Shown here in pieces: positions 32,519 through 49,494 of a stretch of 54,915 nt of DNA. The DNA is taken from IMG/VR virus record IMGVR_UViG_3300025115_000013, positions 1 through 54,915 of that record; one strand, written 5' to 3'. The translations under genes were made by a program, and so were the position numbers. Within the stretch, counting starts at the first letter, position 1. Each line of letters begins with the position of its first letter. Source of the DNA: a virus (Duplodnaviria > Caudoviricetes). The notes below the pieces were generated by a model. It was given only the letters and a program-made list of their open reading frames with translations. It was not told the origin of the DNA and did no database searches.

Positions 32519-32525
32519 AATGTTC

Positions 32526-32731: not shown

Positions 32732-32745
32732 TAATTCTTTACTAA

Positions 32746-32940: not shown

Positions 32941-32990
32941 ATAAATTCTTAAAGATCAATTACTACCTTACTGCACTACTTATGCTTTAT

Positions 32991-33018
32991 ATTATACAGG
33001 AATTTTATTTATTGTCAA
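32991..33018 (-). promoter_or_regulatory. sigma70 promoter of small tRNA cluster
   Basis: GG-TTGACA-N16-TATAAT. Confidence 0.8.
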
Positions 33019-33121
33019 CCTATTTTCAAACTGTTTTACTACGTTATCAAATTCTTCATTAGTGATACTCTTTGCTTTTGCTTTGCAATATATCTAAGTA
33101 TATACCTTTATAAAATTTTGT

Positions 33122-35243: not shown

Positions 35244-35315
35244 ATCACAAGATCTTATTTTCTTTAAACAATTTTACTAAATAAATAATATACATACTTC
35301 ATATGGAGAAATAAT

Positions 35316-35663: not shown

Positions 35664-35667
35664 ATAA

Positions 35668-36381
35668 TTGTTTAGGTTAGGTTTCCTTATTGCATCAGCT
35701 ATCAATACACGCTTCGGCGTGTATGATACTGCTTCTCGTTTGCAGCAAACATTAGACACTATAGCAAGCATCAAAGCTCGCTGTAAAGATCCACACATTA
35801 CGTTAATCGAGATGGCTGCAATCCCGTTAACAGATGAACAACGAGCTACGTTAAAAGCCAGTGTTCATGTGTTGATAGAATTTTCTAACGATGAAGTTGT
35901 AAAACAAATATCTAAGAGCAACAACTGGAATATTATTAAGAACATGACCGAAATGCTTTGTTTCCGCCACGCCTTAAAACTTATGCAAGGCACAGAGTTT
36001 TACAAAGAAGTTACTCGTTTTGTAAAAGTGTCTGGGCGGTATAAACTAAACACCGACTTTAAAGAAAGTGTTATGAAGAAAGCCGGCGATCGTGTAGTCT
36101 TTGCCTCACGCCGTAAAAGTCAATTCCCATCTAACATTACCAAAGGTGTAACTGAACAATTCATGAGTCGCTGCTGGAGTTTTCCTGCTAAAGATATTGC
36201 TGCGGTAGAAAAAATGTACGAAGCGATGCTCAACCATATGCAGCAAGTACTAGGGCAAGGTGGTTACATAGATATCGAACATTTGTTGTTTACTTACAGC
36301 AAAATGTTCGACATATACGAAGTTAAAAAAGTTGGTGTTGAAGGTAATATTGGTCCGAACGGTGCTTTAGTTAGAGACTAG
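35668..36381 (+). CDS. hypothetical protein, possibly glycosyltransferase-like
   Basis: ASAIN..RLQQTLDTI.SI, FVKVSGRY, DIEH. Confidence 0.55.
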   Translation: MFRLGFLIASAINTRFGVYDTASRLQQTLDTIASIKARCKDPHITLIEMAAIPLTDEQRATLKASVHVLIEFSNDEVVKQISKSNNWNIIKNMTEMLCFRHALKLMQGTEFYKEVTRFVKVSGRYKLNTDFKESVMKKAGDRVVFASRRKSQFPSNITKGVTEQFMSRCWSFPAKDIAAVEKMYEAMLNHMQQVLGQGGYIDIEHLLFTYSKMFDIYEVKKVGVEGNIGPNGALVRD

Positions 36382-37145
36382 AAGTAAAAGCACCCGGGAC
36401 GATTAAAAAAGCACTCATTTTCTTGTAACGTTCTACGAGCACTAAAAGTTTCTAACACTGTCTCTTTACCTAGACCTTGTGCAATGCTGTAAGTAAAAGT
36501 TTGGTTACTTAAGAAGCCGTCGGCTCCCGCAATAACTTGCGCTAACTCTAAGAAATCTTTAACTGGGTAATACGGAATATCTACACCAAACGTATTCTTA
36601 AAATCTTCGTGTTCTTGCGGTAGCCCAACAAATACCCCGTCTGTAGTTAACCGATTGGTCATGATTAAATTCATCCAGATGTTGTTAGTATTTGGTGCTG
36701 CACTTCTCCATCGTGGACTTCGAGCAACAACAAACTTCGCAACACGTTTGGGATTAGGCACTGTTAACCAAGGTTTAATAAGATCAGCATCTGTAAACGG
36801 AATGTTGAACGTTGTATAGAATGCACCTAAGAAATTACCTTTGTACTTGCTATGAATAACGCCGCGAAACTCGTCTAAATCTACGTCAATCTTATGTGTC
36901 TGTTCGTCGTAAACTGCTACTGAATTAATATACTCCTGGGCTTCTAATAGAGGCTTTAGTAAGCCAAAGTCTTTCTGTGATAACTTACCTACGTACTCAG
37001 GTGGAACTCCGCCATTTCCATATTTTTGTATCACGTTAGGTATATTGTTTAACTTAACGAAATAACCCCCTCGACCGTAGTGTTTAACTACTGCAAGTGA
37101 ATAAATTAGATCGCCTAAGTTTCCGGAATTAGAGAATGTTTTCAT
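36378..37145 (-). CDS. GT9/heptosyltransferase-like glycosyltransferase
   Basis: SGNLGDLIYSL, FVGLPQE, FLELAQVIAGADGFLSNQ. Confidence 0.7.
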   Translation of the reverse strand: MKTFSNSGNLGDLIYSLAVVKHYGRGGYFVKLNNIPNVIQKYGNGGVPPEYVGKLSQKDFGLLKPLLEAQEYINSVAVYDEQTHKIDVDLDEFRGVIHSKYKGNFLGAFYTTFNIPFTDADLIKPWLTVPNPKRVAKFVVARSPRWRSAAPNTNNIWMNLIMTNRLTTDGVFVGLPQEHEDFKNTFGVDIPYYPVKDFLELAQVIAGADGFLSNQTFTYSIAQGLGKETVLETFSARRTLQENECFFNRPGCFYF

Positions 37146-37173
37146 TTAATTATTTGATTTCTTTAGCCAGAAA

Positions 37174-37748
37174 TTACTTTCGTTTTAATACAACTTCAAT
37201 CGAGCACTCTGTATTTGGTAACAATGTTTGGTCGCCGGCTTGGTCTAAGTCAAAAACTCATTGATTAGTTGTATTTTTCTATCGTAACAGTTGTGGAGAA
37301 TTGCTTTAGCAAATCAATCAAGTTAATAGATACTGGCGACCAACTTCTATCTTTACAGATTGTAAATGTGTGCTTATGATCAGCATTACCTTTACTCGGC
37401 CAAATTCCACGTTCATACATATCTTCATCGGGCAGTTACTATTAAGTACCCCTCTGGTTTTAATACACGCAGCCAGTTAGATAATGCAACCGGTACATCT
37501 ATCATATGCTCTAAGCAATGGCTTGAATGAACAAAATCAAAAGAATTATCCGGAATAGTCTGTAGATACTGAGCATCACCATTCTCTATATCCCAGGAAG
37601 TAATACTGTCTATCCCAATAAACGAGCTCATAACTTTCTCTAGAGAATCGGATCCAGCTCCAACATCTAATCCGTCGCCCACAAAGTAAGCCGAGTGGAA
37701 ATTTCCATCATTGAACCTACGTTTTGCTGCTTTGCTTTGCTCAAACAT
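37174..37748 (-). pseudogene. class I SAM methyltransferase with two frameshifts (or sequencing errors)
   Basis: LDVGAG, FDFVHSSHCLEH, WLRVLKPEG; continues PDEDMYE..HKHTFTI in another frame, then again after a T-run. Confidence 0.7.
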
Positions 37749-37754
37749 TAGGAA

Positions 37755-37946
37755 TCATTCTGTGTCTTTAGGAACGCGAACTGCTTTAGAACGGGTTGCT
37801 GCTTCGTGCATTGCAATACCCATCGATCGCATAAAGAAATTATTCTCAGCTTTGGTTTTTCCATGCATTAATGCTGCTTGCCCTTTAATTGACTTATGCA
37901 ACGTCATACCCTTAGGGCACTTTAACGCTTTTTGATTGTCAAACAT
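37755..37946 (-). CDS. small hypothetical protein
   Basis: 63 aa, AAGGA RBS. Confidence 0.5.
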   Translation of the reverse strand: MFDNQKALKCPKGMTLHKSIKGQAALMHGKTKAENNFFMRSMGIAMHEAATRSKAVRVPKDTE

Positions 37947-38038
37947 GATATTCCTTTTTAAAAGTAAAAATATTTATGGACTGCACAGGCTACAAAAAAT
38001 AAAGGACCCAAAGGGCCTTTATTTGATTACTCACAAAC

Positions 38039-38599
38039 CTATGTTTCGCGTGCTCTACTATTTTCTGGAACGAACTGTAACAAGAACTCCATTTGATCAG
38101 CAAGAATGTTTCTGTTCTTTAAGATCAATGCTTCTTCTGGAGTTGGTGTGTACGGAACATACAACAACTCAAGTTGGGTGTCCTTTAACAACTTGTCACC
38201 TTTATGGCTGTTGCACTTACGGCATGCACACACTATGTTCATCCACGAATGTTGACCACCCTTTGACGACGGAACAATGTGATCCATAGTTGCTAAGTCG
38301 CCTTTACAGTGGCGGCCGCAGTATGCACACAAGTATCGGTCACGTCGAAATAAGTTTTCAGCAGTTAAAGCCGGAGTCTTATGTCTACGGGAGAACTTAC
38401 TCTTTACCCCAATGATGCTAGGAATAGTAATATTAGATTGTTCTCCAGTCATACGGCTGGTTCCGCCATGGAATGTAAAAGAATGTGATCCGTATTCCCA
38501 AGCTATAAGGTTCTTGTACTTTAAGACTACAGAATCTTGCCAGTGGCTCCACCGTTGTGGGTGGCCGTCAGCAGAACAAATTAATATGTTTGGTACCAC
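38039..38599 (-). CDS. HNH endonuclease (McrA-like)
   Basis: RRDRYLCAYCG, DHIVPSSKGG, NIVCACRKCNSHKG. Confidence 0.9.
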   Translation of the reverse strand: MVPNILICSADGHPQRWSHWQDSVVLKYKNLIAWEYGSHSFTFHGGTSRMTGEQSNITIPSIIGVKSKFSRRHKTPALTAENLFRRDRYLCAYCGRHCKGDLATMDHIVPSSKGGQHSWMNIVCACRKCNSHKGDKLLKDTQLELLYVPYTPTPEEALILKNRNILADQMEFLLQFVPENSRARET

Positions 38600-38652
38600 A
38601 ATACTACCCCTTTGCTAAAATGGGGTACTCCTATACCCCGGTTAAAAATCTT

Positions 38653-38742
38653 TGGCGGAGACCCAGGGAGTTGAACCCTGTGAGGATATTACTACCCTCT
38701 ACGGATTAGCAATCCGCTGCATTACCGTCCTGCCCGATCTCC
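38653..38742 (-). tRNA. tRNA-Ser(GCT)
   Basis: cloverleaf, long variable arm, CCA. Confidence 0.9.
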
Positions 38743-38798
38743 GTTTTCCTACGAACCTTTTCTGGATGATGCTCTGGAAGGGTATCATACTTAAAACT

Positions 38799-38882
38799 TG
38801 GCGGAGGATAATAGACTCGAACTATCAACCTTTCGGTGGGACGGTTTTCAAGACCGTGTGTTGCCCCGCAACCCTATCCTCC
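38799..38882 (-). tRNA. tRNA-Ser(TGA)
   Basis: cloverleaf, long variable arm, CCA. Confidence 0.88.
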
Positions 38883-38883
38883 G

Positions 38884-39513
38884 CTATTTTTCGTATAAAC
38901 TCGTAAACCCTTTTCCGTATCTATTTATAGCATACTCTAAGTACTTCTTAATATCTTTCTCAAACAAACAAACTATGTCAGGGTTAGACTGTTGTTTAAT
39001 ATTCCACTGAGGCGTTTTATAGCCTTTGATCTCGTATATTACTCCATTGATCACAAAGTCGGGATAATATTTTCTTTCTTTGCTCTCCCAGATATATGTC
39101 CGAACTTCTTTACACCGTTCAATTAATATATTATGATCTAAATGATAAAGCACAAACGCTAACTCCCAACTAGAATCACAAAAAATATTTTTATACCAAC
39201 CTTTTTTACCTCTGCCAGATCCTTGGCGCAGCCCACCGTTACTTATCTTTGCTTTCTCAGAAATTTTTCGTTTCCTGTCAACTTCCTTTTCGGGCGTTAG
39301 TCCTTTCCCTAAAGTTGATCCCTTAACCCCTTTGTTCCACGCAGTGTGTAACCCAGTTACACCTTTATTCCATGCAGGTAACCCTTTAGGTCTGTGAGCA
39401 TTTGGCGATTTATGTCTCTGTACACGATTCGGATTCTCTTTACAGAAAGGAGAGTGCGCTCCTAACCCACCTGGGTTACTGAATAATCGATTACAATATT
39501 CACAAGTAAGCAT
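38884..39513 (-). CDS. homing-type PD-(D/E)XK endonuclease with Zn finger and AWNKG repeats
   Basis: CEYC..H..C, AWNKG x2, DSSWELAF, YYPDF, YEIKG. Confidence 0.78.
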   Translation of the reverse strand: MLTCEYCNRLFSNPGGLGAHSPFCKENPNRVQRHKSPNAHRPKGLPAWNKGVTGLHTAWNKGVKGSTLGKGLTPEKEVDRKRKISEKAKISNGGLRQGSGRGKKGWYKNIFCDSSWELAFVLYHLDHNILIERCKEVRTYIWESKERKYYPDFVINGVIYEIKGYKTPQWNIKQQSNPDIVCLFEKDIKKYLEYAINRYGKGFTSLYEK

Positions 39514-39558
39514 AATATTATTTATGCCTCACAATCAAATCTGCTGCATTAAACCATG

Positions 39559-39774
39559 CTAAAACACTCTGCTTGCAAAATGCTTTAGGCTGGTAGGAGC
39601 ACAGGGATTCGAACCCTGACCTGGCAGATTAAAAGTCTGCTGTGCTTGACCGTTGACACCATACTCCCGTTGTGTTTCCATCTTTTCTTTACGGCGAGTT
39701 GCTTTGGTTGTTTTACCATGAGCACCCGCCTTTCGTTTATGGACATGTATGCCCATTGGGTTTCTTAGTTTCAT
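39559..39774 (-). CDS. small basic protein reading through tRNA-Lys
   Basis: MKLRNP..KRKAGAHGKTTKA; AGGAG RBS. Confidence 0.5.
   Translation of the reverse strand: MKLRNPMGIHVHKRKAGAHGKTTKATRRKEKMETQREYGVNGQAQQTFNLPGQGSNPCAPTSLKHFASRVF
39591..39668 (-). tRNA. tRNA-Lys(TTT)
   Basis: cloverleaf, CCA. Confidence 0.9.
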
Positions 39775-39919
39775 TTGCTTCTCCTTAGATAAATTTGTTA
39801 ATGCTATTACGATGCTTACAGCTCATTTTCTTGTAATACTTTCCTTTACACCCTGGGTTACGCTTGTCAGTAAAAACCTTACGATAAAGTGCTTTCATGT
39901 TGCTCTCCCATAAAATAAT

Positions 39920-39948
39920 AGTTTACTACATTTTGGTTTATTTGTCAA
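39920..39948 (-). promoter_or_regulatory. sigma70-type promoter
   Basis: GG-TTGACA-N17-TAAACT. Confidence 0.6.
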
Positions 39949-39958
39949 CCGAAAAATT

Positions 39959-40036
39959 TGGCCTCAGAGACAGGACTCGAACCTGCATAATCCTGTTTAG
40001 AAGACAGGTGCCTCATTCCAATTAGACTACTCTGAG
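39959..40036 (-). tRNA. tRNA-Arg(TCT)
   Basis: cloverleaf, CCA. Confidence 0.9.
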
Positions 40037-40042
40037 ATTGTT

Positions 40043-40120
40043 TGGCAGGGGTAGTTGGATTCGAACCAACGATACTGATTTCAAAGACCAGTGCCTTAGG
40101 CCGGACTAGGCGATACCCCA
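40043..40120 (-). tRNA. tRNA-Gln(TTG)
   Basis: cloverleaf, CCA. Confidence 0.9.
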
Positions 40121-40126
40121 ACTGTT

Positions 40127-40202
40127 TGGTCGCTAGAGTGACACTCGAAATCACACAGACATCGTTATGAGCGATGCGCTCTCCCTCTTAAGCTATCTAG
40201 CG
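40127..40202 (-). tRNA. tRNA-Met/Ile2(CAT)
   Basis: CT-CAT-AA loop, imperfect T stem, CCA. Confidence 0.8.
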
Positions 40203-40204
40203 TA

Positions 40205-40279
40205 TGGAGTGAGCGACAGGATTTGCACCTGCATAAGACTGGTTTGCAATCAGCCGCCTAGCTATTCAGCCACGCTCAC
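40205..40279 (-). tRNA. tRNA-Cys(GCA)
   Basis: U73, CCA. Confidence 0.88.
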
Positions 40280-40421
40280 ATTGTATTTGTATGCTCTGCT
40301 GTCTCTACTCAGCTCTAGTGCGTAGCTGCACACCCTTGACAGTCCCTAACTTGTTGCTTACGGGATTTCTCTGTTGTCAGTCCTAGTTTATCGCTAGTCC
40401 GGTTCCTAGGTAGGAACATTC

Positions 40422-40498
40422 TGGTGCCCTGCTTCAGAGTCGAACTGAAACACACTCACTTTTGAAGAGAGCCGCTTTACCAAATTGCGTAGCAGGGC
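40422..40498 (-). tRNA. tRNA-Leu(CAA), short variable loop
   Basis: TT-CAA-AA loop, CCA. Confidence 0.85.
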
Positions 40499-40505
40499 AG
40501 TATTA

Positions 40506-40579
40506 TGGTGCTCAAGTAAGGAATCAAACCTTAGACTCTGTCGTACCAAGACAGCGGTATACCATTTACCTACAAGAGC
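40506..40579 (-). tRNA. tRNA-Thr(GGT)
   Basis: cloverleaf, CCA. Confidence 0.88.
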
Positions 40580-40580
40580 A

Positions 40581-40677
40581 TGGTGGACTATGAAGGAATC
40601 GAACCTTCGAGCTGCCGTCGCATATTCAGTACCATACTTAAAGGGAATCGAACCCCAATACTCGCCATTTATAGCCC
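40581..40677 (-). ncRNA. tRNA-like RNA: Ala-type acceptor, two T-loops, no anticodon arm
   Basis: GGGCTAT/ATAGTCC-A-CCA; GTTCGATTC twice. Confidence 0.7.
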
Positions 40678-40683
40678 AGTTAC

Positions 40684-40755
40684 TGGTCCCCGCAGTAGGA
40701 TTCGAACCTACACAAGCTGGTTTAGGAAACCTGCTGCTGCTCCATCAGTGCGGAG
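40684..40755 (-). tRNA. tRNA-Arg(CCT), compact D arm
   Basis: TT-CCT-AA loop, CCA. Confidence 0.75.
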
Positions 40756-40761
40756 ATTAAT

Positions 40762-40885
40762 TGGTGCCGAGAGTAGGATTCGAACCTACAGTGATTGCCA
40801 AATCTAGCATTCTCTTGCGGAGAATACAACGGAATCGAACCGTATAACGCCTGCCGGCGTGTGTCTACCGTTTCACCATCCCAGC
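40762..40885 (-). ncRNA. tRNA-Leu-like body with ~50-nt structured insert replacing anticodon loop
   Basis: GCTGGGA/TCTCGGC-A-CCA, Leu-type D arm, extra ACGG-TTCGATT-CCGT hairpin. Confidence 0.7.
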
Positions 40886-40891
40886 AATTTT

Positions 40892-40969
40892 TGGTGCCCG
40901 AGGTGAGATTCGAACTCACAAAACTCTTGTCCCTCAAACAAGCGACTTTGCCAATTTGTCCACAAGGGC
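40892..40969 (-). tRNA. tRNA-Leu(GAG), short variable loop
   Basis: TT-GAG-GG loop, CCA. Confidence 0.85.
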
Positions 40970-40977
40970 ATGTTACT

Positions 40978-41053
40978 TGGTCCCACCACTCCGTAACGAT
41001 CGGAGATCCTCGGATTTTCAGTCCGCTGCATAGACCATCTTTGCTATAGTGGG
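40978..41053 (-). tRNA. tRNA-Phe(GAA)
   Basis: CT-GAA-AA loop; T loop ATCGTTA; CCA. Confidence 0.85.
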
Positions 41054-41061
41054 ATTGTCTT

Positions 41062-41136
41062 TGGTGCCTAGCGACAGACTTGCACTGTCCTCTGATGCTT
41101 ACAAGACATCTATGACGCTATCTACACTTGCTAGGC
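41062..41136 (-). tRNA. tRNA-Thr(TGT)
   Basis: CT-TGT-AA loop, CCA. Confidence 0.8.
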
Positions 41137-41143
41137 AAAATTT

Positions 41144-41228
41144 TGGAGGAGGATAATGAAATCGAATCATCGCCCTTTCGGACGGGCCTGCTTTCGAAAC
41201 AGGTTTTAGCCCAGCTAACCTATCCTCC
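41144..41228 (-). tRNA. tRNA-Ser(CGA)
   Basis: long variable arm, CCA. Confidence 0.85.
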
Positions 41229-41233
41229 ATGTT

Positions 41234-41317
41234 TGGAAGCCGTGGTAGGGCTTGAACCTACATGCCCGAAGGCCCCACTTTCAAAGAGTGGTGTGTCTAC
41301 CATTCCACCACACGGCT
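41234..41317 (-). tRNA. tRNA with TTG (Gln) anticodon on a Leu-like class II body
   Basis: CT-TTG-AA loop, GCC-TTCG-GGC variable arm, U73, CCA. Confidence 0.8.
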
Positions 41318-41323
41318 ATTGTT

Positions 41324-41399
41324 TGGTAGTCCAGGCTGGACTCGAACCAGCATAATCTTCGATGTCAACGAAGGTACTCACCTCTCATACCACTGGACT
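41324..41399 (-). tRNA. tRNA-Val(GAC)
   Basis: cloverleaf, CCA. Confidence 0.88.
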
Positions 41400-41403
41400 A
41401 TAT

Positions 41404-41480
41404 TGGTGCGCCGTATAGGAGTCGAACCTATATCATCCTGATTAAGAGTCAGGTATAATCAGCCATTATACGAACGACGC
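41404..41480 (-). tRNA. tRNA-Lys(CTT)
   Basis: cloverleaf, CCA. Confidence 0.9.
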
Positions 41481-41693
41481 GATGTTAGTAAATTACTACT
41501 AGTCTACGGTGTTTTATAGTTGCTGTTGCAGCAACCCACGGGTAGAAAAAGAAATCTAAGTAAAACTGTAATAGCAATATCGGCACTACATTACAAACAT
41601 TGTAGTATGATTCATATTGTTTCTGCATCTTATACCGATGCAAGCTTGTTACATTTGCGGTCATAATATGTATTTACCGCAACAGTAAGTATT

Positions 41694-41766
41694 TGGCACC
41701 CCATGAGCGAATCGAACGCCCGCCAGTGAGTTTCGAAGACTCTCCGCCGACTCCATCGGATGAGGC
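41694..41766 (-). tRNA. tRNA-Arg(TCG), compact D arm
   Basis: CT-TCG-AA loop, CCA. Confidence 0.78.
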
Positions 41767-41772
41767 AATGTT

Positions 41773-41875
41773 TGGTGGCCACAGAACAGGAGTTTAACCT
41801 GCTTAGTCAGAGACATAAGGGTTACACCTCGAGGATTCCCTTATCGTGCTGTCACGGCTGCTACGCATCTGCGCC
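41773..41875 (-). ncRNA. anticodon-less tRNA-like RNA
   Basis: bulged acceptor GGCGCAGA/TCTGTGGCC-A-CCA, T-arm GCAGG-TTAAACT-CCTGT, internal ATAAGGG/CCCTTAT helix. Confidence 0.55.
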
Positions 41876-41881
41876 ATTGTT

Positions 41882-41953
41882 TGGCCTCCCGTACACGAGT
41901 TGAACGTGTCATAGATGATTCGTAGTCATCAAGCCGGTTCCCCCGGACAGGAG
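41882..41953 (-). tRNA. tRNA-Arg(ACG), compact D arm
   Basis: CT-ACG-AA loop, CCA. Confidence 0.78.
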
Positions 41954-41961
41954 TTTATGTT

Positions 41962-42035
41962 TGGCAGGTCTAGAAGGAATCGAACCTCCGCCCGGTGTTT
42001 TGGAGACACTTACGCTACCATTACGCCATAGACCT
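41962..42035 (-). tRNA. tRNA-Trp(CCA)
   Basis: cloverleaf, CCA. Confidence 0.9.
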
Positions 42036-42299
42036 ATTTTGTTCTATTAAGAATACACCACGACAGTTATTGGCTGATAACTTGGAAATCTCATTGTTAT
42101 GGTCTTCTGCTATGTCAATAATTCGTTTTCTGTACTTCGCAACTGCATGAGGATCCATTGCAATAGCATATGCGATTTGTTGGCACTCATATGAGTATTC
42201 TTTAAACTTGCACATTGCAGGAGTCTTGCAAGTTTTAGTTATGTCACACTCCCAACACGGGGAGGCAAGAAGTGTATTAATCAGCTTATCTAGTATCAT
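42021..42299 (-). CDS. Cys-rich hypothetical protein
   Basis: 92 aa; ATAAATA upstream; stop inside tRNA-Trp. Confidence 0.45.
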   Translation of the reverse strand: MILDKLINTLLASPCWECDITKTCKTPAMCKFKEYSYECQQIAYAIAMDPHAVAKYRKRIIDIAEDHNNEISKLSANNCRGVFLIEQNRSMA

Positions 42300-42350
42300 T
42301 ATTTTTGTCCGTGTATTTTATTTATAACTGAATCGGGACTTGTTAAAACT

Positions 42351-42427
42351 TGGTGCGAGCGGTCAGATTCGAACTGACAAACACCAACTTCTAAGGATGG
42401 CGGCTATACCGATTCGCCTACGCTCGC
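42351..42427 (-). tRNA. tRNA-Leu(TAG), short variable loop
   Basis: CT-TAG-AA loop, CCA. Confidence 0.85.
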
Positions 42428-42443
42428 AAAATTACTTTAATCA

Positions 42444-42537
42444 TGGCTCCCCAGGACGGACTCGAACCGCCATATTACGCCTTTCGGCCTTTACGTCTGA
42501 TTAACAGTCAGGTCTCTTACCATTAGAGTACCGGGGA
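42444..42537 (-). tRNA. tRNA-Asn(GTT) with long variable region
   Basis: CT-GTT-AA loop, ~24-nt variable region with GCC-GAAA-GGC, G73, CCA. Confidence 0.82.
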
Positions 42538-42547
42538 ATTAATATAA

Positions 42548-42603
42548 CAGGATGCTTATTTTTCAATTAAAAGTTGAATTATGAGTTTGCTGGACGCATC
42601 CTT
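42548..42603 (-). ncRNA. small RNA carrying a Lys(UUU) anticodon stem-loop mimic
   Basis: AGGATGC/GCATCCT outer helix; inner TTCAA-CTTTTAA-TTGAA. Confidence 0.5.
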
Positions 42604-42621
42604 CTTATTCTTAAAAATTTA

Positions 42622-42695
42622 TATAAATACATTGTGAGTCGCGATGCGCTAACATCCACTCACCCTAGACTAACACACTAAACTCGGAGTCCAGC
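42622..42695 (+). promoter_or_regulatory. late promoter TATAAATA and structured leader of GIY-YIG gene
   Basis: GTGAG-TCGCGAT..ATCCA-CTCAC-CCTA..CAGC-ATG, shared with 9601-9669. Confidence 0.55.
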
Positions 42696-43289
42696 ATGTC
42701 TATTTATAAACCTACATTTCTTTACATAAAACAACATACCGTTACAGGTAAATTGTATTTTGGTAAAACTACTAAAAACCCCGAATCATACGCAGGATCA
42801 GGGAAATATTGGTTAGCCCACATTAACAAACATGGTAAAAATCATGTCGAAACATTGTGGTATTGTTTATTCTACGATAAAGACGACTGTGTTTCTTTTG
42901 CCCAACATTTTTCTAAACAACACGATATAGTTAACTCTGATGACTGGGCTAACTTAATGGTAGAAAATGGTTTAAATGGCGGGTTAGTTAAAAACAATTA
43001 CTTTAAAATATACAATACGATACCAAGAACAGAGGCCCAAAAGTACAACAGATCAGTTCAACAACAAGGGAAAGCCTCAAAAACGTACCCTGTTATAATC
43101 AATAATATCGAATATCCGTCTATTACTGCTGCTGGAAGAGCATTTAACTTAACCGATGCAGCAATTCACCATTGGATTAAACTCGGGAAAGCCACTAGAA
43201 AAGAAAGAGAATTTAGAAGTCCTCGATATAGCTGCATTTCTTGTCGCAAAGAGCTTTCTACAAAAACGTCCCATAGTTGTGTACTATAG
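42696..43289 (+). CDS. GIY-YIG (Seg-like) homing endonuclease with NUMOD1-like domain
   Basis: FLYIKQH..LYFGKT..YAGSGKYW, ENGL.GG, YPSITAAGR. Confidence 0.82.
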   Translation: MSIYKPTFLYIKQHTVTGKLYFGKTTKNPESYAGSGKYWLAHINKHGKNHVETLWYCLFYDKDDCVSFAQHFSKQHDIVNSDDWANLMVENGLNGGLVKNNYFKIYNTIPRTEAQKYNRSVQQQGKASKTYPVIINNIEYPSITAAGRAFNLTDAAIHHWIKLGKATRKEREFRSPRYSCISCRKELSTKTSHSCVL

Positions 43290-43300
43290 CATCCTAAACT

Positions 43301-43378
43301 TGGAGCGGGTATGGAGAGTCGAACTCCGCATTATCGGTTTGGAAGACCGCTGGACGCCCCTTGTCCTAATATACCCGC
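43301..43378 (-). tRNA. tRNA-Gly(TCC), possible 8/4 fold
   Basis: GCGGGTAT/ATACCCGC, 4-bp T stem, CT-TCC-AA loop, CCA. Confidence 0.82.
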
Positions 43379-43544
43379 ATGAATTCTGACCTGCCCTTTT
43401 TAGTCCAGGAGTACTCTCCTATCATCCAGGGTGTTGCAGCAGGCATACCCATTTAACTGTTGCAAATAGATCCCTCCCCGCGTTTGCAGCCCGGGTTACA
43501 AGAGGTTACAGTAGGATCGTCTACTAATCTAACCAGTTAAAATT

Positions 43545-43620
43545 TGGTGGACCAGTGGGGTAACGATCCCCAATCTCCGCATTGCAAGTGCGGCGTGTAG
43601 CCCTCTATCACTACCAGCCC
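43545..43620 (-). tRNA. tRNA-Ala(TGC)
   Basis: G3:U70; T loop ATCGTTA; CCA. Confidence 0.88.
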
Positions 43621-43627
43621 AAATGTA

Positions 43628-43702
43628 TGGCGACCTAGGAGGGAATCAAACCCTCGTCCCCTGATAGACAGTCAAGGATAATAATCACTATAAGACTAGG
43701 CC
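43628..43702 (-). tRNA. tRNA-Asp(GTC)
   Basis: cloverleaf, G73, CCA. Confidence 0.85.
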
Positions 43703-43708
43703 AAATTT

Positions 43709-43783
43709 TGGTCTCAGTGGTGTGACTCGAACACACATCGTCTCCGCCCCAAACGGAGTGACCCACCTTTAGCCCACACTGAG
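43709..43783 (-). tRNA. tRNA-Pro(TGG)
   Basis: cloverleaf, CCA. Confidence 0.88.
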
Positions 43784-43790
43784 AATATTT

Positions 43791-43865
43791 TGGTATACCG
43801 TAGGGGTTACGATCCCCTCTAGGTAGCTTGAAAGGCTACTGACCTCACCAGATGTCTAACGGTAT
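43791..43865 (-). tRNA. tRNA-Glu(TTC)
   Basis: CT-TTC-AA loop; T loop ATCGTAA; CCA. Confidence 0.85.
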
Positions 43866-43871
43866 ATTGTT

Positions 43872-43947
43872 TGGTAGTCCCACCAGGTAACGCTCCTGGA
43901 CCTGTCGCTTATCAGGCGACTGTACAGAACTTCTATACTATAGGACT
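43872..43947 (-). tRNA. tRNA-Ile(GAT)
   Basis: CT-GAT-AA loop; T loop AGCGTTA; CCA. Confidence 0.85.
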
Positions 43948-44067
43948 AAATCCTTTCTCAGCTCGAGGTTATGTCGTCTGAGACTGTGCAAATTAAACCA
44001 CCGCAGCGGGTATTGCACTTTAGCAGTATCAGTGACTGCTCGGCACTTGCATAAGTAAACAACTTAG

Positions 44068-44141
44068 GGGTGACCGGTGGGTAACGCTCCCACTCTACCT
44101 CTTTCACAGAGAGGGTTGCTAAACTTTTACAATACGGTCAC
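44068..44141 (-). tRNA. tRNA-His(GTG)
   Basis: C73, U at -1, ends CCT rather than CCA; flanked by extended helix. Confidence 0.82.
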
Positions 44142-44162
44142 ACTTAAATTGTCTACTGCATT

Positions 44163-44245
44163 TGGTGGGTGCCTGTGGTTTCGATCCACTCCCCGAAGGA
44201 CCAGTTTTACAGACTAGTTGCTGAAGCCATCAGCTTTCGACACCC
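44163..44245 (-). tRNA. tRNA-Tyr(GTA)
   Basis: variable arm CC-TTCG-GG; CCA. Confidence 0.82.
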
Positions 44246-44254
44246 GCTATTATA

Positions 44255-44340
44255 TGGTGGGTTAGGTTGGATTCGAACCAACTAAGCCTGAGGCAAGAGA
44301 TTTACAGTCTCCCGAGGATCGCCGTCTCCCCTGCTAACCC
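44255..44340 (-). tRNA. tRNA-Tyr(GTA)
   Basis: variable arm, CCA. Confidence 0.88.
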
Positions 44341-44346
44341 GTTGTT

Positions 44347-44441
44347 TGGTAGTCCCCCACGGTTACGATCCGTGCCGTTGCAGCCCATCTGACCGCTCTC
44401 CAGAGGATATAAATCTCCGCCGCTCACCAAAGCTGAGGACC
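44347..44441 (-). tRNA. tRNA-Ile(TAT) with long variable region
   Basis: TT-TAT-AT loop, ~25-nt variable region, CCA. Confidence 0.7.
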
Positions 44442-44549
44442 ATCTGTGTTATTTAAATATCCTTTGCAAGACATTTAAGTAACACAGCAGTGATCTAATA
44501 GATTATTATAATTACTGTAATCTATGGATTCAGTTGCTGTCGTTACACT

Positions 44550-45545
44550 TGTTATCAGCCTGAGACTAGAGCTAATACGTTAGACCTTGCGCCGACGATT
44601 ATCACAGCCTTGCGAGCTGCTTTCCGCCCTCTTCCACCATAATCATATAGTAGTCCAACATCGCTGCCTTTTTATACTAGTGGCGTTTCTAGTGTAATGT
44701 ATGACTACTCGGTCTTCTGTCTACCGCCAACCTTGCGGGCTGTGCAGGGCATGACCCCTTACGTGCAACTTCTTACCAACATCCTCTACCTTGCGAGCTT
44801 TGGATGACTCCGTTACCTTGCGGCCGGAGCATTAAGCGATTTTCACCATACATCAGGAACGACTTTGCGTTTGTGTATAAATGGTTGGAATTGAACCAAC
44901 TGCATTCTTCTTAAAAGGAAGACGCTCTACCATAGAGCAACATTTGCAACCTACCTCGAAGAGCGTTCCTTGTTGCTTCATATCCTTTTAGGATACAAAA
45001 TACAACTCTCCGAATACCTTTTGCCTGCCGGCTACTCAGTCGTCTTTCTGGATTAGTGTCCTGTACGCTTGCGCGAGGCCATAAACCCATAAAACTGCAC
45101 AACAGCCTTTCCTTGCGGGGTTGGACCGTTGCACTACCCTTTCTCATACCTGCTAATTAGTTGGTTTGCTAGTGAAGTCAGCACCACCTGTTACTTTCCA
45201 TCTGCTCAAGTTCCCATTGATGCAATCTCAGGCTTGTAAGCAAACGTTCTTTCCACTAACTCTAACTTTACAGTTAGCCCCACCCGTCTTTTAAGTGAGG
45301 CCTGCGTCGCCGCAGTGAGCTGGCTTGCTTAAATGGACCATTACTGGCGCAAGTGCGTAGGCTTCCTTGCTTTGGGCACCTCACGGTGCTTACCCTAATG
45401 ACGTTAAGCCGCCAAAACTCTACAACTTAAAACTTGTTTGCTGAGCTGCATTGCCCAAACCGGGAATCACACTCTTATCCGCTTGACTCAGTTGCTGTAT
45501 ATCTCTATACATGCTCACTATCGTGATACCGAATCAAGTTTCAGC
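44550..45545 (-). ncRNA. large structured ncRNA, GOLLD-like
   Basis: ~1 kb, GC-elevated, no credible ORF, at least 7 CGCAAG tetraloop motifs, inside tRNA array, embedded tRNA; boundaries approximate. Confidence 0.6.
44876..44947 (-). tRNA. tRNA-Lys(TTT) embedded in large ncRNA, no CCA
   Basis: GCTCT-ATGGT-AGAGC D arm, TCTTC-CTTTTAA-GAAGA, GTTGG-TTCAATT-CCAAC. Confidence 0.72.
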
Positions 45546-45552
45546 AAATTCT

Positions 45553-45629
45553 TGGTTGCGGAGGCAGGATTCGCACCTGCGATCTCCGGGTTATGAGCCC
45601 AGCGGGGACGGCTTCTCCCCTACTCCGCG
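45553..45629 (-). tRNA. initiator tRNA-fMet(CAT)
   Basis: C1:A72 mismatch, three G-C pairs in anticodon stem, CCA. Confidence 0.9.
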
Positions 45630-45634
45630 TCAAA

Positions 45635-46930
45635 TTCTTCTCTACGCTCCCCGCCGATATTCTCACCGGGCTTACTTGGTGTATCCTGTGCTCTGTCACA
45701 GTTACATAGAGTCAAGTCAACTTCTTTGATATGCTGTCTCTTCCCTTTTCCTTGTCTTACGGTCCAAGAGTTAGACCATCGCAGTGTCAATTCCGGTACA
45801 ATGAATGATCAATTTGACCAAGCAATGAATTGCCAATCAGGCAGCATATCAAAAACTTTGAGTGGTAACAATAGCGCAGTACAGACTACGATCTCTTACT
45901 GACCCTTTTAAAGAGGCAGTCGTCTGATTTATTCATAGCATGTATTATTCTGACCTGAACCTATTACCAGTTCAACTCTACTATAACCACATTTATTCAC
46001 ACTCAAGGAGGAGTCGAACCTCTTTATAGTCTACGGCTTTTATTTTCCAGGCCCTGCTAGCTAGACAGGCACTGAATGTGAATAAATGTGGTGTCGGTCT
46101 AAGGGATCTATCTCCGACAGTACAGAATTGATTTCAACCACCCTGCGCAGGTTGTCCACTCATTTGTGTCCCTGGCGCATCTGCATCTAACCACATTTAT
46201 TCACACTCCCAGAGAGTTATCAAATTTCTCTGTAACATTTGGATGCATCGAGGGTAATTACTCCTCTCAACCGTCTCCACCGAATGCTGGCGGTTATTAG
46301 ACAGAAATGTGAATAAATGTGGCGTCATATCGTTACCGGTCAGGGCTATTGTCTGACTTCGCATTCTACTAAACATCGATGACCACTTGTGACTAGCAAG
46401 CGTCTAACGATGGAGTTCAAATGCTACTTACCACAAATATAATGGCTTAGCAAGTCTCCTGGACTTTGTATAATGACGCACCATTAACCATATACAATTG
46501 GTGTGCCGTCTCCCGACGGGGTAATAATGTTTGTCAGAATGTTCTCCATAGTCCCGAATCGAACGGGATTATCTGCAAGACAATAGGGTATCCGTACCCT
46601 GGAACATTACGTTGTCGCCTACTGACAAATTCTTGATGATTCTTCTTACCTACCATCACCACCGAGTGGCTAGGCTTCTTAGGGCCAGGAATCTATCATC
46701 AACCTACATCCTAAAGTGATTTCGTCAGTTCTAATCGTTTTGCGAACCAGGCATGGACTCGTAAAATCACTTTAGGATGTCCCCTTGGCATTGCACCAAG
46801 GGATCCTTTGTTTATCGCTACCATCTTTCACTCCACATAAGGAGATCCATACTCCGGTAGGCCGCCCTTTTGCAGGATGTTTTTTTTGGTGCCCTGCGGG
46901 ACTGCGTTCCCCATTAACACCGACCTACTC
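45635..46930 (-). ncRNA. array of helix-closed small structured RNAs
   Basis: long terminal inverted repeats at 45725-45853, 45986-46092, 46190-46322, 46530-46629, 46633-46702, 46706-46780; no credible ORF. Confidence 0.6.
45986..46322. repeat. CCACATTTATTCACA helix used twice (four arms)
   Basis: same inverted-repeat pair closes two different inserts. Confidence 0.85.
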
Positions 46931-46994
46931 TACTACAAATCTCGTCGCTGTTTTTAACTACTCCTTATAACTTGTTGCGTTAATCAGTTTTCGT

Positions 46995-47022
46995 ATTATA
47001 CAGCTTTAAATTTCCTTGTCAA
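46995..47022 (-). promoter_or_regulatory. sigma70 promoter at head of RNA island
   Basis: GG-TTGACA-N16-TATAAT. Confidence 0.8.
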
Positions 47023-47172
47023 CCACTTTCTGAACTTCTTTGCGTGCTTCTTGTAACTGTTTGATTCTACTAACTTTACTTGCTATATACTGTTCAAGCA
47101 TTGCGTCGTTGAGTTCAAACTCACCGCGAGCTGCCCGATCGTTTACTTCTTTGCATATACATTTACTGTGCA

Positions 47173-47586
47173 TTATTTCTTATCCATTCCCAATATTCTG
47201 TTACACTCATCATTCTCTCCCTTATACTTGTCTAAATTCCGAATCGAACTAGTTAGGATTTCTACATTATCTTCACCATATCCAATTAAAGAATTACATT
47301 TTTGGCACAACAACCCACGAACTTTTCCAGTAGCGTGGCAATGATCAACTGCTAATGACCTTTTTAGAGTAGTCTGATGCTTACTGCATATTGCACAGCA
47401 TCCTTTTTGCTCGTTAAACATCGCATTGTACTGGTCTGGAGATAAACCGTAATATTTTTTAAATTGCTATTCCTTGAATAAACACTGGCCTTTCTTTTTT
47501 TCTTCTACTGTCCTGCAAGGGTTACATCGAAATTGATTTGTCCCTGTTTTCTTAAACTCATTACCACAATCTCTACAAATGTTCAT
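47173..47586 (-). pseudogene. endonuclease VII-family homing endonuclease, interrupted (in-frame TAG or two compensating A-run indels)
   Basis: CAIC, LAVDHCHATGKVRGLLCQKCN; upstream CRDC..CNPC in same frame across one TAG. Confidence 0.75.
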
Positions 47587-47603
47587 AATTTATATCTCTA
47601 AAT

Positions 47604-47688
47604 AAAAAACCCGGAGTGTTTAGTTCCGGGTTCCGTTTGCTTATTTGCTGTGGGTTAGCGTTTAACTAGTGCTACCCTCCCGGAACCC
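47604..47688 (-). terminator. terminator/antiterminator pair (attenuator)
   Basis: AACCCGGA-N9-TCCGGGTT-TTTT; competing helix GGGTTCCG (47681-47688)/CGGAACCC (47628-47635). Confidence 0.75.
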
Positions 47689-47820
47689 CAATGTTTTAAT
47701 CTCATATCCACGATCACTATTGCGACTTACATTAGACCATAAACCGAGATCACATAACGGCATAAAGCCTGGCTGTGTGGCAGGTGATGTTCTAAACGAA
47801 TGTAGTGCTATATGTGTCAT
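47662..47820 (-). CDS. putative leaderless attenuator leader peptide (52 aa, all 20 amino acids)
   Basis: MTHIALHSFRTSPATQPGFMPLCDLGLWSNVSRNSDRGYEIKTLGFREGSTS; ATG 7 nt after the -10 box. Confidence 0.6.
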   Translation of the reverse strand: MTHIALHSFRTSPATQPGFMPLCDLGLWSNVSRNSDRGYEIKTLGFREGSTS

Positions 47821-47827
47821 GTTTGAA

Positions 47828-47856
47828 AGTATATTACCTTAATTGTTTTACGTCAA
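47828..47856 (-). promoter_or_regulatory. sigma70 promoter of leader peptide
   Basis: GG-TTGACG-N17-TATACT. Confidence 0.75.
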
Positions 47857-47922
47857 CCACTTTTGGTTAACTATATTTTTACTTATACAGCTATTAAAAA
47901 ACCTGGCTAAAATGTGGTATTT

Positions 47923-49494
47923 TTAACGCTTTTCTCTTGTGTGACCTTTTACTGTATCAACTTTAGTAGTTTGTGCTCTTTTAGGACGGATGTCAACTGA
48001 TGCCCCGGAAGCAATTTGTTCAATCTTATCGTTGATTGCTGCTACCCTCTTGTTACTTGCTACTTCTTTTTCTGCGGTCTTGCTTGCATTTTTGGTTGGG
48101 CTGTACCCAAACGCCATCTTTCCATTAGTGCCAGTAGCAAAATATACTTTGCCTGGATCAAGGACAATTGCTCCTTCAAAATTTGGTGGATACAACGATG
48201 TTAGTTTAGTTGCCACCGCGTTATTGCCTTTTTTACCAACAGTTAGGTAAACCTGGATAACTGGACTAGCATTCACAAACTTAATACACATTTCTCCGAA
48301 CTTTGGATCAGAGTTAATGTCGGCAGCAACAATCTTTGCTAATCCTGCCAGTGCATGATAACCGACACTATAACCCGGCTTCGCTTCCGGATTAAGTAAG
48401 CCCATTAAATGGTCAAGCTCTTTCTTGTCTGCTGCTGTGAGCGAGGTTGCTTGATTTAAAGTTTTTACCCCTGATTTAATCAATTCAAGTATTTTGGTGC
48501 CAACACGCTGCGAGATCATACCTCGCTTTGTGGCATACTTTACAGGAAACTCTACTGATGATGCTGCGCTAATCTCGTCAAGGATCGCTATTTGGTCAGC
48601 ATACTTTGTGATCATCTTCTTTTGTGTCGATGTACCTTTTTCTTTAACATAGTCGATACCATCATACACGTTCTTAATACTTGCTTTAGCACCCTTCTTA
48701 CCCTTACTGCTAATGCCTACTTCAATACCATCCTTAATTACAAAGCTATCTACTAACCCGTTAGTCTTAGAATCTGGGAAAATAATCTGTGAGCCTTTCC
48801 AGTCATCGCCACCTAACACATCTTTGCGGGCTGCTTCTGCCCCCTGGTCTGTAATCATTCCTAACACAAGGGCAATAGGAGCAATAATTTCACCTAGGTC
48901 ATCCTGAATAGCAGGGATCATATCTGCTTTACCTTCAAACACTGGCATCTGTCCGCCTAACAGCATTTGTAAACCAGGTAATAAATCTTTTACCTTGTCT
49001 TTACCTTGTAACGCACTAACAATCTCAAGCGGGCTGTTAAATATTGAGTTAGGAGCAAATAAGTCAGTAGGTTTTAACCCGTGACTTGACTTAATGCTCG
49101 ATCCTTTAGTTAATTGCCAATCTCCTGGTAAGTCGTTGTTCTTCCATTGGCCAGCCATGTCTGTGCTAATTTTCTTAAAGAATCGACAAACGTAAACCCC
49201 ATTGCCGTCATTGTCAGTTAGCGTTAAGATCGCAAACGCTTTTGTACCTGCATTTGGGGTATTTACATATTGGATACCCGGGTAATTAATAACAATCTTC
49301 TGCGCTTCTGTTGCTAATTCGTTGTAATCTTCATACTCACCCGGCATACCCGGAAAATATTCAACCTTCTGGAAGGTTAATACATCGTCTGGATTACTCT
49401 TACTAAAGAATGTGTCTCCTTGATCTCTGTAAAGAAGACCACGGGATGCTTCGGTTAACGTTATTTTTTCAAGTTTGTTCAGGATATCACGCAT
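47923..49494 (-). CDS. hypothetical late protein, possible PD-(D/E)XK fold
   Basis: 523 aa; ATAAATA upstream; LGE..LVDS..ISSKG pattern. Confidence 0.5.
   Translation of the reverse strand: MRDILNKLEKITLTEASRGLLYRDQGDTFFSKSNPDDVLTFQKVEYFPGMPGEYEDYNELATEAQKIVINYPGIQYVNTPNAGTKAFAILTLTDNDGNGVYVCRFFKKISTDMAGQWKNNDLPGDWQLTKGSSIKSSHGLKPTDLFAPNSIFNSPLEIVSALQGKDKVKDLLPGLQMLLGGQMPVFEGKADMIPAIQDDLGEIIAPIALVLGMITDQGAEAARKDVLGGDDWKGSQIIFPDSKTNGLVDSFVIKDGIEVGISSKGKKGAKASIKNVYDGIDYVKEKGTSTQKKMITKYADQIAILDEISAASSVEFPVKYATKRGMISQRVGTKILELIKSGVKTLNQATSLTAADKKELDHLMGLLNPEAKPGYSVGYHALAGLAKIVAADINSDPKFGEMCIKFVNASPVIQVYLTVGKKGNNAVATKLTSLYPPNFEGAIVLDPGKVYFATGTNGKMAFGYSPTKNASKTAEKEVASNKRVAAINDKIEQIASGASVDIRPKRAQTTKVDTVKGHTREKR

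Follow-up and report, generated by a model that had tools for sequence, protein, structure and literature searches.

What is the role of a 52-codon open reading frame (ORF) that lies between a promoter and a terminator-like hairpin, upstream of a long array of transfer RNA (tRNA) genes in a phage genome? This question is raised by the IMG/VR virus record IMGVR_UViG_3300025115_000013 (Duplodnaviria; Caudoviricetes), which we analysed over its whole length of 54,915 bases and call the window; with an estimated completeness of 16%, it is a piece of a jumbo phage. The minus strand carries nearly all of its genes, the element described here included. A sequence-only reading of this DNA had proposed that the ORF is the leader of an attenuator responding to all amino acids. 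By comparing the window with its relatives, we came to consider it rather probable that the element is a ribosome-mediated transcription attenuator, which heads the tRNA island and senses overall translation and the supply of charged tRNAs.

A promoter, a short ORF and a terminator-like hairpin form a compact element

The element consists of the following features, given in the order of transcription:

47828-47856, minus strand: leader promoter, sigma70-type (-35 at 47856-47851, -10 at 47833-47828, spacer of 17 nucleotides (nt), 10/12 match)
47662-47820, minus strand: leader ORF, 52 codons plus stop, leaderless form (ATG at 47820, stop at 47664-47662)
47681-47691, minus strand: 5' arm of the predicted competing (antiterminator) helix, codons 44-47
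47652-47677, minus strand: small inner hairpin enclosing the stop codon, a prediction from the local fold
47628-47635, minus strand: 3' arm of the competing helix, sharing bases with the start of the terminator 5' arm
47600-47632, minus strand: candidate intrinsic terminator (hairpin 47632-47608, -9.3 kcal/mol; T-run 47609-47604)

This layout is essentially the one described by the sequence-only reading. First, the ATG at 47820 begins 7 nt past the -10 element, that is at the expected transcription start. Second, a recount of the ORF returned the same numbers, with all 20 amino acids reached by codon 42 and 39 different codons among 52. Third, the U-tailed hairpin does stand just after the stop codon.

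By searching the window for a strict promoter pattern (five -35 bases, a gap of 15-19 nt and a -10-like hexamer), we found 11 matches, all on the minus strand, against 0.59 expected, so that the leader promoter is no chance match. Six of the 11 precede protein genes, each with a leader of 30-32 nt and a strong ribosome-binding site. The leader promoter has no such 30-32 nt leader. The absence of a 5' leader was first read as a hint of a non-coding RNA, a view that was dropped after comparison with the relatives described below.

Taken alone, the amino-acid coverage of this ORF is mildly unusual. All 20 amino acids are present in 2.6-3.0% of 52-residue windows of real proteins and in 5.8% of cases under independent draws. 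They are also held by 5 of the 63 ATG-initiated ORFs of 45-60 codons in the six frames of the window, and the other complete short ORFs are plainly spurious, being antisense to genes or lying across tRNAs. The use of 39 different codons in 52 is less expected (P about 0.001-0.004). The leader holds 2 Ala in its 52 residues, and 44 of its 52 codons are readable by the phage tRNAs that ARAGORN lists, compared with 50 of the 61 sense codons overall, which does not discriminate. We briefly considered that the ORF overlaps a degenerate tRNA; an Rfam E-value scan shows no tRNA-like match there. The coverage signal is strong only across the family of relatives.

The element recurs upstream of tRNA arrays in related jumbo phages

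Direct searches returned no relatives. Neither a 1201-base DNA query nor the 523-amino-acid (523-aa) protein encoded upstream of the element matched GenBank phages. Among 1.84 billion protein representatives, the window ORF retrieved itself and five repetitive or low-complexity proteins, which we judged to be spurious multi-stretch matches (one resembles a translated CRISPR array and one a tandem repeat). Exact-word searches with the element gave no relatives. A locus search gave none with the window ORF alone and, with a two-sequence alignment in viral contigs, only the record of one copy, L003, described next.

An alignment of 27 homologues of the 523-aa protein led us to 35 viral loci. The blastn and tblastn searches of the element against these loci gave nothing significant, and the two closest loci with downstream tRNAs show the cassette of promoter, short ORF and terminator on inspection, as read from each locus:

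L003, plus strand: promoter at 8413, 51-codon ORF at 8491-8646, terminator
L031, plus strand: promoter at 11284, 52-codon ORF at 11361-11519, terminator

A metagenome scan added L043, with a peptide 64% identical to that of L003. When a profile of the first three peptides was run over the 35 whole records, it returned the two known copies and one weak match elsewhere (E = 0.07), and it missed copies in records G024 and G029 that were found by a scan for the architecture. For the latter, tRNA arrays were located in 24 related records, 9 of which hold tRNAs, and the heads of 6 arrays were scanned for a promoter, a short ORF and a terminator. This gave L031 and L003 again, together with two new copies, L044 (46 codons) and L045 (36 codons, with no 5' leader, as in the window). 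A profile of six peptides then brought in nine more small database proteins, and an alignment of the subgroup brought in 28 IMG/VR loci. In total, the cassette is present in 30 unique DNA copies (the window and 29 others, from uncultured jumbo-phage contigs), and the peptides, database proteins included, amount to 40 unique sequences, which fall into 4 clusters when grouped at 50% identity and into 9 at 70%. The leader peptides have no family match in Pfam or PHROGs.

If the sequence-only reading was right, a codon-diverse ORF was to be expected upstream of related tRNA arrays. Such an ORF was indeed found in L031, L003, L043, L044 and L045 and in the 28 IMG/VR loci. Same-strand tRNAs begin 305-1110 nt after the stop codon in 24 of these 28 loci, the other four ending within a few hundred bases; the cassettes of L003, L031, L044, L045 and the window likewise lie upstream of tRNA arrays. 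A strict promoter match is present at most 140 nt upstream of the ORF in 28/28 IMG/VR relatives, and in the four leaderless copies (the window, L045, L057 and L075) the ATG is placed 6-10 nt after the -10 element.

The long-leader copies among L050-L076 have 5' untranslated regions (~45-55 nt before the ATG) which, by eye, hold a hairpin near their 5' end whose arms differ between loci yet remain complementary, and a purine-rich site rather far from the ATG.

These copies also bear on the simplest explanation of the locus, a chance arrangement in which a spurious ORF lies in the 3' untranslated region of the 523-aa gene and the operon ends at the terminator. For a single copy, the presence of all 20 amino acids in 52 residues is a 3-8% event, and we found no separate terminator 3' of the 523-aa gene. 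However, 29 other unique DNA copies repeat the cassette together with its geometry and properties, and only 2 of the 35 loci fetched around homologues of the 523-aa protein hold it nearby. The family thus already contradicts a chance arrangement, to which we give next to no credence.

The predicted terminator and a competing helix are mutually exclusive, and the stop codon keeps a fixed distance to the terminator

The proposal that the end of the ORF can pair with the 5' arm of the terminator was borne out by energy calculations. In the window, codons 44-47 (47691-47681) are predicted to pair with 47635-47628, overlapping the 5' arm of hairpin 47632-47608. This duplex reaches -17.8 kcal/mol, compared with -8.0 +/- 2.3 kcal/mol in 3000 shuffles (P = 0.0007), and the minimum-energy fold of the whole window transcript holds the competing helix, not the terminator. 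In the first four copies the competing helix ranges from -14.8 to -18.1 kcal/mol (P <= 0.0023 each, 3000 shuffles) and in the 28 IMG/VR loci from -17.4 to -22.9 kcal/mol, while the energies of the terminator hairpin lie between -8.7 and -15.4 kcal/mol across all copies. As a control, we compared 23 terminator-like sites in the DNA then examined for complementarity at the same geometry. The four known elements rank 1-4; the next best site reaches -13.1 and the median over all 23 is -9.1.

The geometry is fixed as well. The distance from the stop codon to the T-run is 52 nt in the window and 48-57 nt in 30/30 unique copies, while the ORF itself varies from 36 to 54 codons. In all copies, the stop codon lies ~26-35 nt before the terminator stem.

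The sequence-only reading had also predicted covarying helices among relatives. Since MAFFT and RNAalifold gave an unusable alignment over the four deep lineages, helices were compared one sequence at a time across lineages. We observed that the arms differ in sequence from lineage to lineage with complementarity kept. Within the large subfamily, 13 sequences have A-U and 10 have G-C at pair 144/210, a compensatory change, and 96.6% of the helix cells are paired. Moreover, the nucleotide motif of the arm encodes Gly-Ser in one set of copies and Arg-Val-Arg in another, which indicates that the constraint at this place is on the RNA and not on the peptide.

Two further hairpins are predicted. 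One is conserved inside the ORF (columns 46-79 of alignment A12), with hardly any covariation and no pairing to the arm; as a conjecture, it could be a pause site letting the ribosome catch up. The other spans the stop codon in L031, similar to the one at 47652-47677 in the window.

What does the terminator stand in front of? In 25/28 relatives, a gene of 50-60 aa with a good ribosome-binding site starts 22-25 nt after the start of the T-run; its protein belongs to no known family in Pfam or PHROGs. Between the leader stop and the first tRNA, we found no strict promoter in 16/24 relatives and, in 11 of the 14 loci examined, no promoter match of at least 10/12 after the leader (L058 has only 9/12 matches there). 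In loci of this kind, the small gene and the tRNAs are reachable only through the terminator, which argues that termination is conditional.

The leader peptides keep a complete set of amino acids

All 20 amino acids are present in 38 of the 40 unique peptides, and the other two hold 19, L045 (36 residues) being without Val and L063 without Cys. For each sequence, the chance of completeness is 0.015-0.03 when judged from windows of real proteins and 0.01-0.06 when judged from spurious ORFs. Combining L031, L003, L044 and L045 by Fisher's method, leaving out L043 and the window (the discovery case), gives 1.6e-4 to 1.2e-3, nominal values that overstate independence, as the sequences are related. 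By shuffling alignment columns in the 33-member cluster, we obtained 12.6 +/- 2.2 complete sequences (never more than 21 in 5000 shuffles), where 31 were observed, a contrast that relatedness can inflate. When the conserved columns were fixed (20 columns, 16 kinds of amino acid) and the rest redrawn, the chance was 0.006-0.25 per sequence; 8/10 diverse representatives are complete. Comparison with null models, which the sequence-only reading had suggested for amino-acid coverage, thus went in its favour.

The rare residues are kept in a particular way. Cys occurs exactly once in 31/33 sequences, distributed over 7 alignment columns; His occupies 7 columns and Tyr 4. In L060, L069 and L074 the usual Tyr is lost and another Tyr stands a few residues on, and in L060 the usual Phe is lost and regained elsewhere. 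Single residues that relocate yet persist bear the mark of selection on whether a residue is there and not on where it stands. The members of the family likewise use many different codons (median P = 0.004 versus gene windows and versus spurious ORFs), and in 27/30 copies every amino acid has already appeared when the first codon of the helix arm is reached.

The frame is kept open with little ordinary selection on most of the peptide

The leader frame is open in 30/30 unique DNA copies, compared with 93 and 151 stops in frames 2 and 3, that is 3-5 per copy. This bears on whether the element acts as an untranslated RNA, either a riboswitch-like or tRNA-sensing leader or a small RNA released at the terminator, with the ORF as a by-product. 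Conservation at the nucleotide level would fit such an RNA, as would the 5' hairpin of the long leaders, their weak ribosome-binding sites, the existence of alternative folds and the position of the L003 cassette among other promoter-driven short RNAs. However, an RNA of this kind would not account for the open frame, for a stop codon at a fixed distance from the terminator or for an ATG exactly at the expected start in the four leaderless copies, and what is conserved, namely the full set of 20 amino acids and the codon diversity, is a property of the translated sequence only. Nor does it resemble a known family. An Rfam scan of 45600-48000 at E <= 1 gave no T-box and only one chance-level match to another family, and across L044 and L045 at E <= 0.1 only tRNA-related or sub-threshold matches were found, outside the cassette. 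We regard an untranslated RNA as very unlikely.

How is the frame constrained? In the subfamily, differences in the leader are spread evenly over codon positions 1, 2 and 3 (0.34/0.31/0.35), with a ratio of nonsynonymous to synonymous differences (pN/pS) of 0.76; for the adjoining small gene the values are 0.33/0.26/0.41 and 0.56. Conserved leader codons are fixed at all three positions, fourfold-degenerate ones included. Between L003 and L043, ~20 codons differ and one difference is synonymous, according to a hand count on the alignment. Together, these data indicate that the frame is kept open, yet most of the peptide is outside ordinary protein-type selection. Such a pattern would be expected of a regulatory leader ORF, and it may also be compatible with a short peptide, functional or of the arrest type, encoded by the conserved blocks.

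An ordinary small phage protein (36-54 aa) made from its own promoter, with a leaky terminator behind it and with complementarity that is incidental or serves mRNA stability, would explain why the ORF is conserved in 30/30 unique DNA copies, why promoter and terminator bracket it so neatly and why several peptide motifs recur across lineages, some with serine codons of different families. It sits badly with the even substitutions and the codons fixed at third positions, with an arm motif that is read in two different frames, with the hypervariable C-terminal tail and with the lack of a Pfam or PHROGs family. The fixed spacing between stop codon and terminator and the covarying competing helix also speak against it, and single Cys, His and Tyr residues that move yet persist have no reason under this explanation. 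Furthermore, if termination were constitutive, neither the small gene nor the tRNAs would be transcribed in the 16/24 loci without an intervening promoter. A plain protein gene is therefore unlikely in our judgement.

The conserved blocks deserve separate consideration. Just before the arm, they are strong and include an invariant Trp and an acidic/Pro block, as might be seen in a nascent arrest peptide of the TnaC or SecM type that stalls the ribosome at one site on a specific signal, the complete amino-acid set being secondary; the terminator/antiterminator architecture would be the same as for the attenuator that we favour. On the other hand, conservation of the blocks is seen in the nucleotides and extends to fourfold-degenerate positions, more than an arrest peptide needs, and the blocks differ in the L003/L043 and L031 lineages. 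The complete set, the relocating single residues and the codon diversity would all be left unexplained. We hold an arrest peptide to be quite unlikely.

The cassette is embedded between a conserved phage gene and an RNA island

In the window, the minus strand carries from 5' to 3' the 523-aa gene, the leader promoter, the 52-codon ORF, the hairpin with its T-run, the zinc-ribbon/endonuclease VII region, a 55-aa ORF, a perfect promoter, an ORF-poor stretch, a GOLLD RNA and the tRNAs. The features around the cassette are:

47923-49494, minus strand: 523-aa gene, ending at 47923, upstream of the leader promoter
47173-47586, minus strand: zinc-ribbon ORF and endonuclease VII domain in one frame with a single TAG between them (Pfam PF02945, E = 3e-23)
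47006-47173, minus strand: 55-aa ORF, probable homologue of the 50-60 aa gene of the relatives
46995-47022, minus strand: second promoter from the promoter scan, 12/12 match, which would also feed the non-coding RNA (ncRNA)/tRNA island
31933-45629, minus strand: tRNA/ncRNA island, with 37 tRNAs listed by ARAGORN, one tRNA found by Rfam only (Asp) and a GOLLD RNA at 44557-45013

The 37 ARAGORN tRNAs lie on the same strand as the leader and serve 19 amino acids. The twentieth is supplied by a tRNA at 43631-43702 on the minus strand, found by Rfam only (40.5 bits) and with an Asp anticodon read by eye. With this addition, the claim that tRNAs for all 20 amino acids lie downstream holds.

The sequence-only reading had itself cautioned that an endonuclease VII gene and a second strong promoter intervene, and both are present. 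In none of the 28 relatives did we find an endonuclease gene between the terminator and the small gene. Aligned to the profile of the 50-60 aa protein, the 55-aa ORF of the window gives an hhalign probability of 58.8% (E = 9.4e-5, 30 columns), so that the endonuclease gene looks inserted, probably as a homing endonuclease that entered between attenuator and small gene. Within it, the zinc-ribbon ORF (47586-47467) is followed at 47466-47173 by the endonuclease VII domain; counted from the TAG, the Pfam domain begins at residue 3, and no start codon is present before 47421. The split frame could reflect stop-codon read-through, recoding or a recently broken homing-endonuclease gene.

In L031, a 39-aa homologue of the ribosome-rescue factor ArfA is encoded at 11656-11775 on the plus strand, between the terminator and the tRNAs (Pfam PF03889, E = 4.7e-7, above the cut-off). 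A gene of this kind after the leader would suit a response to stalled translation, although it has a promoter-like site in front of it.

The island holds other RNAs. The GOLLD RNA (minus strand, 186 bits) encloses a tRNA-Lys, and a permuted transfer-messenger RNA (tmRNA) of the same island lies at 31075-31332 (minus strand, 90 bits). After the perfect promoter, a stretch of 1.36 kb (45630-46995, minus strand) is poor in ORFs. Part of it, ~46700-46860, shares a conserved block with sequence after the cassettes of L045 (~1000-1185, minus strand) and L031 (11800-12095), for which Rfam gave no match. This stretch possibly holds an undescribed structured RNA of tRNA islands. In L003, the region 7900-9300 (plus strand) has five near-perfect promoters within 900 bases, each driving a short transcript; two are identical duplicates, and one transcript resembles by eye a tRNA-Leu with extra sequence in the anticodon region.

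For the 523-aa protein encoded upstream of the cassette, the scored candidates include 293 homologues at E <= 0.001, which lie on contigs as long as 400 kb; Pfam, PHROGs and GenBank phages gave no match. The protein seems to be conserved within a clade of uncultured jumbo phages.

A ribosome-mediated attenuator is the most probable account of the family

We propose the following model. Host RNA polymerase would start at the sigma70-type promoter and transcribe the short leader ORF, whose 3' end (codons 44-47 in the window) would pair with the 5' flank and the first stem bases of the terminator, so that no terminator hairpin forms and transcription continues. A ribosome that translates promptly would reach the last codons or the stop codon, ~26-35 nt short of the stem, and cover or melt the upstream arm; the hairpin would then form and end the transcript. 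A ribosome lagging or stalled further upstream would leave the arm free, allowing read-through into the small gene and the tRNAs, and into arfA in one relative. The position of the ribosome would thereby choose the fold. Because the leader keeps all amino acids and an unusual variety of codons, read-through could be triggered by a delay at almost any codon. Blocked initiation should give read-through as well, because we found no helix that would sequester the arm when the leader is not translated.

As in classical attenuators, a short ORF lies between the promoter and the first structural gene and is followed by a predicted terminator and a conserved, mutually exclusive helix. There is no run or enrichment of regulatory codons, and the rare amino acids are mostly present in single copy. 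In a more specific version of the model, the leader would be held by selection to at least one codon per amino acid and would act as a sensor of the whole tRNA pool. Damage to tRNAs (for example by a host anticodon nuclease), starvation or a shut-off of translation would release replacement tRNAs, accompanied in some phages by a ribosome-rescue factor such as the ArfA of L031. We put this version forward tentatively, as a possibility on the doubtful side.

Several observations weigh against an attenuator of this kind. First, as to the leader itself, its codons, among which the sequence-only reading had listed ATA, CTA, AGA and CGG, are not rare for the phage, lying at the 35th percentile of its own codon preference. 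In the long-leader copies, ribosome-binding sites are weak or distant. Long blocks are invariant even at third codon positions, contrary to what the model would lead one to expect; they could reflect a pause hairpin, a site bound by a protein or an arrest peptide. Some motifs are kept across deep splits with serine codons of different codon families, in a by-eye reading of the ORFs, which hints at selection on the peptide.

Second, sampling of the whole tRNA pool stands as far as the complete set in 38/40 peptides is concerned and falls short for Glu. When a codon is required to lie at least 5 codons before the arm, the median drops to 19 kinds of amino acid (range 16-20), with Glu usually missing; most copies have no Glu codon further than 4 codons from the helix arm. 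A ribosome stalled at such a Glu codon probably covers the arm. In addition, as mentioned, relatedness makes the combined P values nominal.

Third, as to structure, the overall fold of the window transcript is modestly stable (z-score -1.96), and no convincing helix sequestering the upstream arm, equivalent to the 1:2 helix of trp, was found.

Fourth, as to the route to the tRNAs, the 12/12 promoter (47022-46995) and the endonuclease gene lie between terminator and island in the window, a strict promoter precedes the first tRNA in 8/24 relatives, and promoter-like sites follow the terminator in L003, L043 and L031. Read-through is thus not the only way to reach the tRNAs. Two of the six array heads scanned, L046 and L047 (heads of 11- and 7-tRNA arrays in records G010 and G014), are without a cassette. 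Finally, no RNA run is found among the sequencing runs holding the window stretch, the sole holder being one DNA run labelled freshwater metagenome, possibly that of the source sample.

The element resembles known attenuators in layout and differs in what it could sense

The closest known analogue appears to be the upstream ORF (uORF) of mycobacterial whiB7. According to its study, the amino acids in that uORF decide which starvations are sensed, efficient translation leads to termination and stalling to antitermination and read-through; whiB7 uORFs vary and are often without several amino acids (PMC10274678). Like whiB7 as described there, the phage element has a fairly long, diverse uORF followed by an intrinsic terminator with an alternative antiterminator, the functional half of this likeness being known for whiB7 alone. 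Unlike it, the phage element stands before a small ORF and tRNA genes and not before a transcription factor, shows no alanine enrichment and, lying in phages, matches neither the whiB7 target nor the actinobacterial setting, and a complete set of 20 amino acids is kept across the phage family (38/40). Judged from the Pfam and Rfam negatives alone, the two have no sequence relation.

In the leaders of trp, his, leu, thr, ilv and pheA, a short ORF lies near the promoter, the 5' arm of the terminator can alternatively pair upstream and the stop codon is placed so that the ribosome masks one arm. The phage element shares this layout. It differs in having no runs of a single codon, about one codon per rare amino acid, high codon diversity and a leader two to three times longer. 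It has no clear 1:2 helix either, so that absent translation should give read-through and not super-attenuation, and the genes under control would be tRNAs, not biosynthetic enzymes.

T-boxes bind one uncharged tRNA directly and are untranslated. The phage element would resemble them as a terminator/antiterminator leader reporting the state of tRNAs, with the difference that it has a conserved ORF and no Rfam match to a T-box. In ermC, cat, msrD and tnaC, too, downstream expression depends on where the ribosome stands on a short leader ORF. These leaders respond to one drug or ligand through a specific nascent peptide, and most of them act on translation or on Rho-dependent termination. To our knowledge, none of the drug-responsive leaders, nor tnaC, needs a complete amino-acid set. 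In architecture, the phage element is thus a case of leader-peptide attenuation that has no defining run of regulatory codons.

Phage tRNA arrays have been explained by codon supply and, lately, by escape from host tRNA-cleaving defences (PMC10264068). A full-text literature search, with most subscription journals outside its reach, returned no leader or attenuator before a phage tRNA array, and in the literature found the regulation of phage tRNA genes is hardly addressed. If our reading is right, the family described here would be a regulatory element for a phage tRNA array. It would also provide a natural leader peptide complete for all 20 amino acids, extending the one-amino-acid logic of trp and his and the looser case of whiB7 to overall decoding. 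Two consequences would follow. First, a leader deprived of its one codon for Cys, His or Trp should stop responding to that amino acid, with the response to the others intact. Second, loss of the start codon should give constitutive read-through. The element is compact (~250 nt), its promoter and terminator are of the usual sigma70 and intrinsic types, and it could therefore be used to report translation stress. For annotation, it is a caution that conserved short ORFs in phage RNA islands can be regulatory and not protein genes. Finally, if the leader does sense the whole tRNA pool, it would be a phage-encoded alarm tying counter-defence to the translation state of the host.

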